Shown in pieces: positions 1 through 8,116 of a stretch of 64,000 nucleotides of DNA; within the stretch, counting starts at the first letter, position 1, and each line of letters begins with the position of its first letter. The translations under genes were made by a program, and so were the position numbers. The stretch comes from Alphaproteobacteria bacterium UBA3650 (GTDB taxonomy: Bacteria > Pseudomonadota > Alphaproteobacteria > CAAHEQ01 > UBA3637): contig DFKH01000083.1 in NCBI GenBank assembly GCA_002373815.1, forward strand, positions 2,376-66,375. Reading direction: 5' to 3'. The notes under the pieces are model-generated. The model made no database searches and was not told where the DNA came from. It saw only the letters and a list, made by a program, of their open reading frames with translations.

Positions 1-772
1 TTTTCAGTCAGACATCATTAAGTTAAATGAAGCTGACAAAGGTCGCTTAGGTTCTTCTGTAACAGCATTTTCATTTTTACAAAAATTAAATTATTTGATT
101 AAGGCTGGAATTGAAATAAAATCTTTTTCTTCCATTTTAACAAATGTTAATACCTCATCTACAATGCATCTTCCTACTCCACAATTGATGTTTATAGATC
201 AATTAACTCGCGAACTCGAAAAGAGGCCTGACTTACTAGCATCTGTTGTAGAAGAAGTACAAAAAGTTGATCTTGGAATTTCAAACTTGACTCCCTTCAC
301 AGTAAAGCCAAATAATAATTTACAACCTCAACCAGATTTGAAATTATTACTTGCTGAACATAAAGATGGACATTCTACTGTTCGTTTACCATTATTACAA
401 GAGTCAGCAGGCACAGTTAATTATATTATTCTATTTGCTAAAATTAGAGATATTTTAACAACAGGCGGTATTTTAATTGCAGATGAATTAGAAAATAGTT
501 TACATACAGATTTAGTCGAAAGAATTTTGACTTTATTTATAAGAAAAGAGTCAAATCCTAACAATGCACAGATTGTATTTTCTACTCACAATCCTTGGTT
601 TTTACAATTTTTAAGGAAAACTCAAATTTTTATTGTAGAAAAAGATCATGCGCAAGCTACTGATATGTACAGGTTGGATGAAATAAAAGAAGTCCGCAAT
701 GATGAGAACTACTTTATCAAGTATATCAATGGCGAATATGATGGTAGGCCCAAAATCAAAGAGTATTTATAA
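1..772 (+). CDS. 5'-truncated AAA_21/AAA_15-type ATPase (AbiLi-like), C-terminal part; ORF is open to the window start
   Basis: Frame is open from nt 2. Motif ILIADELENSLH (Walker B/D-loop-like) and QIVFSTHNPWFL (H-loop region) are typical of AAA_21 abortive-infection ATPases. Stop overlaps the next start (ATGA). Confidence 0.6.
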   Translation, partial: FQSDIIKLNEADKGRLGSSVTAFSFLQKLNYLIKAGIEIKSFSSILTNVNTSSTMHLPTPQLMFIDQLTRELEKRPDLLASVVEEVQKVDLGISNLTPFTVKPNNNLQPQPDLKLLLAEHKDGHSTVRLPLLQESAGTVNYIILFAKIRDILTTGGILIADELENSLHTDLVERILTLFIRKESNPNNAQIVFSTHNPWFLQFLRKTQIFIVEKDHAQATDMYRLDEIKEVRNDENYFIKYINGEYDGRPKIKEYL

Positions 773-1392
773 TGAAGAAACGCTATAGGAAAAAGACATG
801 CTATTATATATATGAAGGAAAGACAGAAGGTTATTTCCTTCATTATTTAGCATCTCTGTTTCCCAATGCTTCTGTAAAAGAAGTTTCTCCTTTCTCTGGT
901 CGAGGAGGAACGGCCGACTCTATTGTTTTAAATGCATTATCTTGTCAATATTATGATAGATTATTTGTTCTTTTGGATGAAGATTTTGAATCTAAAGCTG
1001 CCGAATATCGCATTTCAAATGAGACTCTAAGAAAATTAGAACAACAATGGAATATTGATCCAGGAGCACTCTCTGAAGTTAAATATAGAGACCTCCATAA
1101 ATATAATATAAATCATAGAAAACCTGTTATCATTGTCTCAAATCCTCAAGCAATAGAAGGATTATTATTACAAATTTTAGGTTATTCTAAACAAAAATTA
1201 GAAAATAAAACAACAGATGAGCTTAAAAGCATGATTCAAAACTTTCTCAAATCAATAACAGACACTTATCCTTGTTATACAACCCCTGAGGCGTTATTGC
1301 ATTTATTTAAACAAAAAATGTCATTAGCCATATTACAAGAAAAGCGCAAAATAATTCCAGAACTAGATACACTTTTAACTTTTTTTGAATAA
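772..1392 (+). CDS. RloB-like protein (AbiLii-like partner of the ATPase)
   Basis: N-terminal CYYIYEGKTEGYF resembles the RloB/Toprim-like signature (vCEGekTE..YF). Translationally coupled to the upstream ATPase. The ATPase + RloB pair is the known AbiL architecture. Confidence 0.55.
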   Translation: MKKRYRKKTCYYIYEGKTEGYFLHYLASLFPNASVKEVSPFSGRGGTADSIVLNALSCQYYDRLFVLLDEDFESKAAEYRISNETLRKLEQQWNIDPGALSEVKYRDLHKYNINHRKPVIIVSNPQAIEGLLLQILGYSKQKLENKTTDELKSMIQNFLKSITDTYPCYTTPEALLHLFKQKMSLAILQEKRKIIPELDTLLTFFE

Positions 1393-1417
1393 GCTTGTAA
1401 TTTATTCGAATTAATTT

Positions 1418-1990
1418 TTATATTTTTTTAATTGAAAAGAGTGGCCTTTTTGCCAATCGAAATAATTTTGTATATACGCTTAAATTTTTCTTATTATTAT
1501 CCACATGATGTGACAGCACTGAAAACTCTGAAAAATTTACCCCAAGTTCTACCAATTTTTGCAAACACAAGCTTTGTTTTGTCAGACAAGGCATTTGTCC
1601 AATATGTTGCTTTAATCTGTTCTCTAAATTCTGAGATGATCCAACAAACAATGTTGTAAATTCATGTTTGCTATTCAAATTATTCAAAACATCCTCGTTC
1701 AAGCAAAGCATAGAATCTACACCATAAATCTTTTTCCAAACTTCTCGCAATAAAGGTCTATATTTTAATACAACATCAGTGGACATCATGACCATATAAA
1801 CAACATTTTGATTCATATATCGATTTGGAATAACCACAGGCTCATCTATTTTTTGATCCATATAAAAGCCTTGATATCCTTGCGCGCGTCCTACCGCTTT
1901 GATTTCATCCATTGTTTGTGCTATTGGGTGAATTTGCGTTTGAAAAAATACTGTTGTCATTTCATCCATCGTCATACTAACTCCTTTCAT
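1418..1990 (-). CDS. hypothetical protein (island-encoded, no recognisable domain)
   Basis: 190 aa ORF in a very AT-rich region. Preceded in sense orientation by copy A of the recurring TATAAT-containing motif. Confidence 0.4.
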   Translation of the reverse strand: MKGVSMTMDEMTTVFFQTQIHPIAQTMDEIKAVGRAQGYQGFYMDQKIDEPVVIPNRYMNQNVVYMVMMSTDVVLKYRPLLREVWKKIYGVDSMLCLNEDVLNNLNSKHEFTTLFVGSSQNLENRLKQHIGQMPCLTKQSLCLQKLVELGVNFSEFSVLSHHVDNNKKNLSVYTKLFRLAKRPLFSIKKI

Positions 1991-2030
1991 TTAACTCAAC
2001 GAATCGCAGTCTAGCACAATTCAAAACTTT

Positions 2031-2060
2031 TGTGTCTTTTATAAAATTATAGGCGTGAGG
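2031..2060 (-). promoter_or_regulatory. Repeat copy A: TGTGTCTTTTATAAAATTATAGGCGTGAGG (reads CCTCACGCCTATAATTTTATAAAAGACACA on the minus strand; contains TATAAT and TATAAA)
   Basis: 25-nt exact match to 7855-7879. Shares the TTATAAAAGACAC core with copies at 5065-5090 and 6764-6784. Lies 28-70 nt upstream of the minus-strand ORF start at 1990. Confidence 0.45.
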
Positions 2061-2073
2061 ATAGTCTAAATCT

Positions 2074-2709
2074 TTAACTTATTTTTGGCAATCTCTTATC
2101 CTTAAAGTGTTTTTCTACCAATTTTTTGATTTCTTCATCTGGCAAGGACTCTATAAAACTTTTATAAAACCAGTTGCCAGATGGATGACCAAATATACAC
2201 ACATTTACCTTTTCAGGCATGCCTTTCTCTAATTCTTGGTAAAAATAAGAAAATTTTTCAAAATCTTTTCCTAATAGCCACAATTTAATCGATGAATTTT
2301 TTCTTAAGAGATTTACTATAAATTCAGCCATAATTTCTTGAGATTCTTTCTCTTTATCTAACTTGACTGTCCTAGCAGTGGACACAAAACTTTTATTCCA
2401 AAAAATAATCTCATGTTTGCAGGCAAGCTTTGTTAAAAAATCTTTTATATGTTGTGTTCGTCCACAAAAATATTCCTGTTTCTTTAATTCAGTATTCCCA
2501 GGATTATCACCAACAATAATATATTTGATATTTGCAATATTATCAATTTGTTTGGATAAATTTTCTAAAAATGGATTTGCATCTTCTCTTTTCTCATCTT
2601 GTGGATTAGGATTAGGCACCACATTTTCTTCTTGGCTATTATTCATCCAATCCAAAATTTTGTCTTTCAAATCTTCTACTAATGGGTGTAATGTCATATT
2701 TTTCTCCAA
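2074..2709 (-). CDS. uracil-DNA glycosylase superfamily-like protein (divergent family-4-like motifs)
   Basis: GDNPGNTE...EYFCGRTQ resembles UDG motif A (GEAPG..E..G.PFvG). CIFGHPSGNWF resembles motif B (HPSP). Divergently arranged with an XRE regulator. Confidence 0.45.
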   Translation of the reverse strand: MEKNMTLHPLVEDLKDKILDWMNNSQEENVVPNPNPQDEKREDANPFLENLSKQIDNIANIKYIIVGDNPGNTELKKQEYFCGRTQHIKDFLTKLACKHEIIFWNKSFVSTARTVKLDKEKESQEIMAEFIVNLLRKNSSIKLWLLGKDFEKFSYFYQELEKGMPEKVNVCIFGHPSGNWFYKSFIESLPDEEIKKLVEKHFKDKRLPKIS

Positions 2710-7687: not shown

Positions 7688-7703
7688 GCGGAGCCAATAA
7701 AAA

Positions 7704-7779
7704 TGGTGCCGAGAATGTGACTCGAACACACGACCTACTGATTACGAATCAGTTGCTCTACCACCTGAGCTATCTCGGC
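7704..7779 (-). tRNA. tRNA-Thr (anticodon CGU)
   Basis: Reverse complement GCCGAGATAGCTCAGGTGGTAGAGCAACTGATTCGTAATCAGTAGGTCGTGTGTTCGAGTCACATTCTCGGCACCA folds as a cloverleaf. Anticodon loop is TTCGTAA, T-loop GTTCGAGTC, with encoded CCA. Confidence 0.85.
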
Positions 7780-7851
7780 AACAGAGCTATTATGCCATAA
7801 ATACAAAGAAAAATCAAGGTGTTTTTAAGTTACCGTTTTTTACTGGATTCA

Positions 7852-7881
7852 ACTGTCTTTTATAAAATTATAGGCGTGAAG
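7852..7881 (-). promoter_or_regulatory. Repeat copy B: CTGTCTTTTATAAAATTATAGGCGTGAAGG (putative tRNA-Thr promoter region; TATAAT on the minus strand)
   Basis: 25-nt exact match to 2034-2058. Lies 73-102 nt upstream of the tRNA 5' end. Confidence 0.45.
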
Positions 7882-8055
7882 GTAAAAATAAAGGACATTT
7901 TGAGGACCATTTTTATAAAGTTTTATTAAAAGAATAAGCCTTTCAAATCAAACAATTAAGAACAAATTATGAGTACTTTTCAAAAGACTTGACTTTATCC
8001 ATCAAATCCTATAAACTGGCTTCATTGTTGAGGTGTCAAGAGATGTGAGCAACGC

Positions 8056-8101
8056 ATTCGTAATCAGTAGGTCGTGTGTTCGAGTCACATTCTCGGCACC
8101 A
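8056..8101 (+). repeat. Inverted copy of the tRNA-Thr 3' half (46 nt identical including CCA; weaker similarity extends ~10 nt further 5')
   Basis: ATTCGTAATCAGTAGGTCGTGTGTTCGAGTCACATTCTCGGCACCA is identical to the 3' 46 nt of the tRNA-Thr, which is encoded on the opposite strand 280 bp away. Confidence 0.75.
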
Positions 8102-8116
8102 TTTTTTGGGGGTAGT

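Follow-up and report, generated by a model that had tools for sequence, protein, structure and literature searches.

An ~8.7-kb integrative element that splits a host tRNA-Thr(CGU) gene in its anticodon loop and carries a complete tRNA-Thr of its own

Which tRNA gene did the island at the left end of this DNA enter, and what became of that gene? The stretch analysed here, 64,000 nt of Alphaproteobacteria bacterium UBA3650 (GCA_002373815.1, contig DFKH01000083.1, positions 2,376-66,375 of the forward strand; hereafter the window), begins inside an AT-rich island that carries a tyrosine integrase gene and, on the minus strand, a complete tRNA-Thr(CGU) gene. An earlier reading made from the letters alone (the sequence-only reading) took this tRNA gene for the right end of the island. 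Our data point instead to a plus-strand tRNA-Thr(CGU) gene as the target, whose two parts now lie at the two ends of the island. We consider it probable, at roughly 0.8, that an ~8.7-kb integrative element other than a prophage was inserted by its tyrosine integrase into the anticodon loop of this gene and brought a replacement tRNA with it. In the sequences compared here one sees directly that the host gene is split, that the element carries a tRNA and is mobile, and that its 5' cassette exists in two orientations.

The comparison drew on public (Logan) unitigs and on related genomes. Two unitigs, L001 and L002, match window positions 1-7728 and 1-5400, respectively, with 0 mismatches. A genome scan with the integrase yielded 71-73% identical integrases in four alphaproteobacterial metagenome-assembled genome contigs, the orthologues in L003-L005 falling in this range; protein look-ups added two further family members, L013 and L016, and four syntenic contigs, L018-L021, were reached through homologues of the host gene at 8117-8782. 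Source samples such as SRR873603 and SRR5322886 gave L001 and L002, along with L014 and L015. Five loci are informative for the layout of the island tRNA (the window, L003, L004, L016 and L005). Families were searched in Pfam, NCBIfam, PADLOC (defence), PHROG, PDB and, for positions 1-9000, Rfam, and tRNA genes were called with ARAGORN.

We found that the island, correctly recognised as a mobile island targeted to tRNA-Thr, is absent from all four syntenic contigs. Their gene order is ComM-like, PAS protein, 61-aa gene, tRNA-Thr(CGT), 221-aa gene, LpxL, LpxK and KdtA, with one intact tRNA on the plus strand that ends 14 nt upstream of the 221-aa gene. An empty tRNA-Thr site, which had been proposed as a check, does therefore exist, with its tRNA on the plus strand and not as the minus-strand copy of the window; no minus-strand tRNA-Thr is present at these sites. 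The intact tRNA of the empty sites is 76/76 identical to the tRNA carried by the window's island. The tRNA is likewise intact in more distant relatives (L022-L024), and P0160 is another relative without the island. In L017, 96.2% identical to the window backbone, the sequence continues from the flank past the anticodon into genuine tRNA 5' sequence.

The right boundary of the island falls at 8056-8063, inside an inverted copy of the tRNA 3' end that the sequence-only reading had noticed and treated as a separate finding. On the plus strand, 8047-8101 reads GAGCA-ACGCA-TTCGTAA-TCAGT and on to CCA, which is the 3' part of a tRNA. The loop is preceded on its 5' side by ACGCA (the L003-L005 type, instead of ACTGA) and followed on its 3' side by TCAGT (the host type), which puts the crossover within the 7-nt anticodon loop. 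The fragment at 8064-8101 is identical to the intact tRNA of L018 and L019 and stands at the same distance from the 221-aa gene; together with the loop, the host 3' part of the split tRNA spans 8056-8101. At the other end, L001 extends the window sequence 654 nt leftward. Both L001 and L002 start with AGCTCAGGTGGTAGAGCAACTGATTCGTAA, which is tRNA-Thr residues 9-38 in plus orientation, and directly after the anticodon loop (TTCGTAA) they diverge from the tRNA into GGAATGGCAAATC. The displaced host 5' half is thus located on L001, between 624 and 653 nt before position 1 of the window. As had been predicted, the left boundary is upstream of position 1, ~624 nt further left, and the first open reading frame (ORF) of the window is the C-terminal part of a 402-aa gene. 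The order is 5' half, TTCGTAA, GGAATGG at the left junction and GAGCAACGCA, TTCGTAA, 3' part of the tRNA at the right one, and the island, which starts about 623 nt before position 1 and ends at the crossover, totals ~8.69 kb. Its composition contrasts with the backbone, G+C being 0.322 across 1-8055 and 0.388 in the rest of the window. This is ~6.5 standard deviations (sd) under the backbone mean (96 backbone 8-kb windows; mean 0.390, sd 0.010) and under the lowest backbone window, 0.369.

Is the split gene rebuilt at either end? We found that it is rebuilt at neither junction and that the sole full tRNA there is on the opposite strand. attP and attB have in common only ATTCGTAA (8 bp) and, two bases upstream, GAGCAAC (17 bp with 2 mismatches), and no more than about 8-17 nt (GAGCAACnnATTCGTAA) is common to both junctions. 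Where a direct repeat of the tRNA's 3' 40-50 nt had been expected on the left, the displaced 5' half stands instead. A repeat search found no direct copy of the tRNA 3' end within the window, as had been noted before, and the only other copy of the tRNA sequence in it is the inverted one, 60 nt long and 97% complementary, at 8047-8106. These observations bear on two other explanations. In a classical tRNA island, the minus-strand gene at 7704-7779 would be the chromosomal target, restored by the island, with a direct 3' repeat further left, and the integrase module is indeed close to this tRNA, whose 3' end faces the island. However, no same-orientation fragment borne by the island restores the target, the empty sites have their tRNA on the plus strand beside the 221-aa gene, the left end is a plus-orientation 5' half and not a minus-orientation 3' fragment, and the minus-strand tRNA has moved with the element into a host of different tRNA sequence (L016, below). 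A classical island is therefore very improbable here. The other explanation is a chromosomal duplication and inversion of the tRNA without any mobile element, from which the 60-nt inverted repeat, its copies 288 nt apart, could have come. Its probability is close to nil, since the entire 8.7 kb is absent from syntenic genomes and the cassette of tRNA, spacer, core and arm recurs with the integrase in unrelated flanks.

The tRNA-Thr that had been read as the boundary is a genuine minus-strand gene, and it is neither boundary nor target. Located within the island, it is separated from the crossover by 267 nt and has the opposite orientation to the split host gene; in L003, L004 and L016, too, it accompanies the element. 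The sigma-70-like promoter upstream of it (Table 1) has an equivalent in the L004 spacer, TTGCAA-17-TATAAG. When the island, hybrid and intact host tRNAs are aligned, 105/105 pair cells are standard and 7 pairs show compensatory changes, a conservation of pairing reached by 0/500 shuffles. In the acceptor and T stems, the island tRNA of L004 and the split host gene have different bases, and every such difference is compensatory. These data suggest that the island tRNA is under selection as a functional cloverleaf, from which we infer a cellular function. Because neither junction rebuilds the host gene, the island tRNA presumably substitutes for it. The spacer contains blocks common to the window and L003, namely two GGAC repeats, AAATCAAA and TGTTGAGGTGT, which are plausible arm-type integrase sites, and the attP arm adjoining the core is far better conserved than the rest of the element. 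For the annotation of the UBA3650 genome, 7704-7779 should not be taken as a native thrW-like gene.

We found the same layout in at least three host backgrounds besides the window. In L003 and L004 the order is the displaced 3' part, a 75-300-nt spacer with a promoter, a complete tRNA-Thr in opposite orientation, cargo, XRE, a protein of unnamed family, a PAD-like enzyme, Int, Rep, a conserved ~95-nt arm, the TTACGAA core and the displaced 5' half, after which host DNA begins. The layout is full or partial in L003, L004 and L016, and the contigs of L006 and L013 reach only the 5'-half junction. L004 and L005 are 98.5% identical over 4.66 kb of element sequence, while the host gene in their flank is 79% identical; L006 is 99.4% identical to L004 as far as the 5' half and unalignable beyond. 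Near-identical copies with divergent flanks indicate that the element moved recently between different hosts together with its tRNA and spacer. L016 is 89-95% identical to the window island, and its host 5' half is of the ACGCA type while its carried tRNA is ACTGA/TCAGT. With respect to the integrase gene, the window has the tRNA-spacer-core-arm cassette in the opposite orientation to L003 and L004; for a circular element, this would change only its chromosomal facing.

One family member, L005, shows a different arrangement of the two halves. There a 5' half with an island-type promoter adjoins the chromosomal 3' half to form a normal tRNA, and the island's own 3' half is orphaned, inverted and adjacent to this hybrid. 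In-silico inversion of L004 4102-4216, the segment between the inverted cores, reproduces L005 but for four differences: a 2-nt replacement (AG to TT) in the 5' strand of the acceptor stem, one substitution, one T-run indel and one junction base. The AG to TT change restores pairing with the chromosomal 3' strand. Given that the anticodon stem-loop of the element's tRNA by construction copies its attB, we favour the integrase over homologous recombination as the agent of the inversion.

We asked whether the L005 layout could be the native one. The attP would then carry the promoter and 5' half and regenerate the gene on insertion, and the layout in the window would be a secondary inversion or an assembly choice, the carried tRNA having no replacement role of its own. 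L005 is built in this way and its hybrid tRNA is perfectly paired, 5'-fragment islands are on record (159/3919 in Islander; PMC4383910), and in the window both orientations give an identical tRNA, between which short-k unitigs cannot discriminate. However, a complete island tRNA is present in 4/5 informative loci (the window, L003, L004 and L016) and the hybrid in one, and a k=31 unitig of L016 independently spans the core in the complete-island-tRNA orientation. Furthermore, the acceptor and T stems of the L004 island tRNA match the island's own 3' half and differ from those of the host, which indicates that the complete-tRNA configuration of L004 is long-lived and selected. We therefore think a native 5'-fragment island unlikely. 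That the tRNA/attP cassette is a functional, integrase-driven toggle, moving the promoter and 5' half-tRNA between the 3' halves of island and chromosome, is a tentative idea to which we give less than even odds. If true, one element could either replace or repair the split gene, and tRNA sequence would be exchanged between the element and its hosts.

Several points weigh against insertion with tRNA replacement as we describe it, or against parts of it. The flipped state was found once only, in L005, and the L004 and L005 orientations are known from different hosts and not from one population. The inversion could be RecA-mediated, and because the two sites in L004/L005 share 20 identical nt, integrase and homologous recombination are not distinguishable there. 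How 7750-8055 is oriented in the window depends on whether the deposited assembly resolved a 51-nt perfect inverted repeat correctly, since the k=31 Logan unitigs end at this repeat. For the left chromosomal flank of the window's own genome, the 90-kb contig holds no orthologue of the upstream PAS gene. Finally, the replacement may be dispensable, through a second host tRNA-Thr(CGU) or a tRNA-Thr(UGU) reading ACG.

Is the element an autonomous integrative or mobilisable island, or a phage satellite or degraded prophage? It is small, it holds an integrase, an XRE repressor and replication-type genes, and PHROG matches were obtained for the integrase, the XRE protein and the AbiLi-like ATPase. 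However, Pfam and PHROG show no capsid, terminase, packaging or lysis genes among the 11 ORFs of its 8.7 kb, scans of IMG/VR by integrase alignment and by conserved arm pattern found no relatives, and the Rep-like protein has no tblastn match in 50,697 phage or 72,556 plasmid records. Its genes are intact, and different hosts contain nearly identical copies of it. A satellite or prophage remnant is thus an improbable explanation. A metagenome scan with the integrase alignment found only an unrelated integrase of 25% identity. Integrases of ~40% identity are numerous, with 3345 matches at E<=1e-30; in the one such neighbourhood that was read (L009 9581-11059, Rickettsiella endosymbiont, CP079094), the integrase is just downstream of a tRNA-Thr(TGT) in ordinary orientation, beside a second integrase. 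This locus rules out the split-and-replace layout as a general trait of the wider integrase family.

How would an element of this kind enter and persist? We propose that the integrase acts between attP (GAGCAACGCA-TTCGTAA-GGAAT) and the anticodon loop of tRNA-Thr(CGU) and that the host gene is not rebuilt because the common core is only 8 bp, both steps being read from the junction sequences. The host 5' half would stay ~8.7 kb upstream at the left junction, presumably behind its own promoter. The island tRNA, expressed from the promoter-like site 9 nt upstream, would supply the lost function while the element is integrated, and precise excision would restore the host gene. The XRE regulator and four island-only TTATAAAAGACAC boxes would probably control the element, the Rep-like protein could replicate the excised circle or serve as relaxase, and an outward promoter-like site at 7989-8017 may drive the host gene at 8117. 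Because the integrase core site occurs once more, inverted, within the island tRNA, recombination of this second copy with the junction core could invert the promoter and 5' half, which would then complete the chromosomal 3' half rather than the island's own, as in L005.

The features of the locus are collected in Table 1. The core of the element is formed by the XRE regulator, the 3634-4191 protein, the PAD-like enzyme, Int and the HUH Rep-like protein, and the AbiL, UDG and remaining genes are variable cargo. Pfam confirms the integrase, XRE, UDG-superfamily and deiminase-family labels that had been assigned from the letters; other labels stood only in part. Of the proposed AbiL pair, an AbiLi ATPase followed by AbiLii, the first partner is strong (full 402-aa protein, L001:218-1426, PADLOC AbiLi E=2.3e-63) and the second weak, the two forming a candidate defence pair. 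In the Rep-like protein, the motifs uuTuxF, HYHxML (HUH) and YxxKE are invariant in 5 homologues of 47-88% identity and stand in canonical order, in support of its label, although the Pfam match is below threshold. It has no PDB match, and its AlphaFold2 single-sequence model (pLDDT 47) was unusable, so that no fold search was made from it. The weakest label, which the sequence does not support, is the helicase-like one: on direct reading, the 6836-7687 protein contains no GxxxxGK[ST] motif and so does not have the Walker A/B ATPase core of a DnaB-type helicase. The similarly placed protein of L004 (4436-5296) is a true DnaB_C protein (6e-20) with GKT and gives a BLASTP value of E=1.0 against the window protein. 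A protein of ~285 aa thus adjoins the island tRNA in both the window and L004 without detectable mutual sequence similarity.

Table 1. Features of the island, its right junction and the adjoining host flank, with family homologues of the PAD-like enzyme. Coordinates refer to the window unless a locus is named.
Feature	Position	Strand	Evidence or remark
Island, in-window part	1..8055	.	L001 identity, absence from syntenic L018-L021, low G+C
AbiLi-like ATPase, C-terminal 257 codons of 402-aa gene	2..772	+	AAA_21 4.4e-12; cargo
AbiLii-like partner (weak match)	772..1392	+	PADLOC AbiLii E=4.5e-5; no Pfam match
Protein with sub-threshold GIY-YIG match	1418..1990	-	Pfam 18.1 bits vs cut-off 22.4
UDG-superfamily protein	2074..2709	-	Pfam UDG 28.8 bits vs cut-off 24.3
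XRE-type HTH (helix-turn-helix) regulator, core module	2866..3237	+	HTH_3 6.3e-13; conserved in L003, L004, L005, L013
Conserved core protein, no family match	3634..4191	+	tblastx to L003
PAD_porph / agmatine-deiminase-like enzyme	4188..5018	-	Pfam 1e-30; PDB agmatine deiminases 2e-14
PAD-like homologues	L003 8975-9829; L004/L005 8977-9870; L013 2986-3816; L016 6578-7408
Tyrosine integrase	5216..6271	+	Phage_integrase 1.3e-32; phrog_1 4e-67
Small HUH-type Rep-like protein	6281..6739	+	Invariant motifs; Pfam REP_ORF2-G2P 21.9 vs cut-off 27.8 bits
RecA/DnaB_C-like protein without Walker A ("helicase-like")	6836..7687	+	Weak PAXNEB, KaiC, ImuA matches, residues 22-58 only
Complete tRNA-Thr(CGU), island-borne	7704..7779	-	ARAGORN; Rfam tRNA 70.4 bits
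Spacer and attP arm	7780..8046	.	Between island tRNA and crossover; alignment with L003
Sigma-70-like promoter TTGATT-17-CATAAT with extended TG	7789..7817	-	Ends 9 nt upstream of island tRNA
Outward promoter-like site TTGACT-17-TAAACT	7989..8017	+	Reads across attR toward host gene 8117
attR core GAGCAACGCATTCGTAA	8047..8063	+	Crossover within ATTCGTAA (8056-8063), anticodon loop
Displaced chromosomal 3' portion of tRNA-Thr(CGU), residues 39-76	8064..8101	+	Matches L018, L019 empty sites
Host flank gene, 221 aa	8117..8782	+	Orthologues 220-225 aa start 14 nt past intact tRNA in L018-L021
TTATAAAAGACAC box, 4 copies	2032-2044 (-), 5070-5082 (-), 6772-6784 (+), 7853-7865 (-)		Island-only

Among the other core genes, the integrase has R206, H295, R298 and Y330 among its invariant alignment columns, which we assigned as catalytic by eye. 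The PAD-like enzyme is in the core of every family member (L003, L004, L005, L013 and L016); its C-terminal GGSIHC catalytic-Cys motif is intact and its gene lies between the pair formed by XRE and the 3634-4191 gene and the integrase. A predicted guanidino-group-modifying enzyme is here a core gene of an integrative element. At the position matching 3634-4191, L013 and L016 have an unannotated ORF of similar size. As for the cargo, homologues of the UDG-superfamily protein occur in L004 (6523-7134; UDG 1.2e-7) and L005 (tblastx). The 1418-1990 protein also matches an NCBIfam group I intron endonuclease at 1.4e-4, far below the cut-off; the GIY-YIG and group I intron hints have no backing from an intron RNA, since the Rfam scan of 1-9000 gave no match besides tRNA. 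In L016 (sample SRR24653753), three unannotated genes stand in place of the UDG region and the RecA-like gene is separated from the tRNA by a gene for an additional 715-aa protein without Pfam matches, the variant-cargo regions being 2761-5067 and 10140-12287. The first cargo gene past the island tRNA in L003 (3546-4175) encodes an ankyrin-repeat protein (Ank_2, 3e-35), a hint at eukaryote-associated hosts. Elsewhere in the window, tRNA Arg-CCG (31320-31396) and Gln-TTG (31474-31548) lie 78 nt apart, both on the plus strand.

The TTATAAAAGACAC box has 4 matches, all in the island, where 0.21 would be expected in 64 kb, and this was reached in 0/100 shuffles. One box each precedes the island tRNA and the 1418-1990, PAD and RecA-like genes, with a promoter-like TAnAnT following every box. 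The int-rep pair is flanked by two copies that make up a perfect 22-nt inverted repeat, and the boxes coincide with repeats D2, D4, I2 and I6. The box is probably an operator or promoter element of the island regulator.

What does the insertion mean for the host genes beside it? At the empty sites the 221-aa gene is probably co-transcribed with the tRNA, since it starts only 14 nt after it. In the window, the island separates this gene from the tRNA promoter. The outward promoter-like site, which is conserved in L003 as TTGATT-17-TACATT, may stand in for the lost tRNA promoter. A longer, 249-aa ORF from GTG 8033 (8033-8782) is an annotation artefact, because the orthologues of 220-225 aa begin at the ATG equivalent to 8117; its N-terminal extension runs over the displaced tRNA fragment. 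At the left end (L001 1-217, window -653 to -437), the displaced 5' half points into the island toward AbiLi/AbiLii, and its counterpart in L003 and L004 faces rep and int in antisense. Transcription running on from the host tRNA promoter could thus have opposite effects in the two arrangements.

The strategy of breaking a host tRNA gene and replacing it is already known; new here is its occurrence in a small non-phage island, with an invertible half-tRNA. Our data extend it from temperate actinobacteriophages, where it has been known until now, to a small, non-viral and recently transferring island family of compact design, in which the replacement tRNA lies inside or beside attP in inverted orientation. 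Since the layout breaks the standard rule for mapping tRNA islands, by which fragment and tRNA have the same orientation (PMC4383910), such islands are probably under-counted. L004 and L005 represent a natural half-tRNA swap with a compensatory change in the acceptor stem, which bears on the diversification of host tRNA genes by mobile elements.

Four known systems are close enough for comparison. In fimS/FimBE and similar switches, tyrosine recombinases switch invertible promoter segments. The present cassette resembles them in being a short promoter segment bounded by inverted recombinase sites and found in both orientations (L004 vs L005); unlike them, its orientations are from different hosts, the flipped segment also holds half a tRNA gene, and the recombinase is a presumed one. 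Zhao and Williams reportedly described elements of "reversed target orientation" in 2002, which belong with the 5'-fragment islands considered below. With classical tRNA/tmRNA islands (sublocation A of Williams 2002; Islander) our island shares a tyrosine integrase, cargo of low G+C, a displaced fragment that marks the end, and a crossover in the 7-nt anticodon loop flanked by a symmetric stem; unlike in those islands, no same-orientation island fragment restores the target, and the layout of the window is one that the orientation filter of Islander discards, candidates with a tRNA opposite to the fragment being rejected (PMC4383910). Compared with 5'-fragment islands, a minority class in which its state falls, L005 likewise gives a promoter and 5' half to the chromosomal 3' half and displaces the host 5' half, whereas the window, L003, L004 and L016 do not, and L005 also keeps an orphan inverted 3' half.

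The fourth system, recently described and the closest parallel, is the tRNA-dependent lysogeny of actinobacteriophages (Fionnbharth, LeBron, Gaia and others; Guerrero-Bustamante and Hatfull 2024), in which an 8-17-bp core lies in a tRNA gene that is not reconstructed and the phage's cognate tRNA is required for lysogen survival, as shown genetically; Lactobacillus prophage Lj965 is mentioned as a possible case (PMC10865867). In Sinorhizobium, too, host tRNA genes are reported to be substituted by tRNAs of phage-related sequences (PMC11476347; also PMC12429752). Our element differs from the actinobacteriophages in that the carrier is an 8.7-kb element of uncultured Alphaproteobacteria without virion genes, and so not a temperate phage, in that its tRNA is inverted and 75-300 bp from the attP core and forms a 55-60-nt inverted repeat with the displaced 3' half, and in that a flipped state exists (L005); the need for the tRNA, established genetically for the phages, is presumptive here. 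In the features that define the strategy the two agree: a tyrosine integrase, a short core in a host tRNA gene (here 8 bp, or 17 with 2 mismatches), no reconstruction of that gene, and an element that carries a tRNA of the same anticodon, here identical at 76/76 positions to the intact gene of the host lineage.

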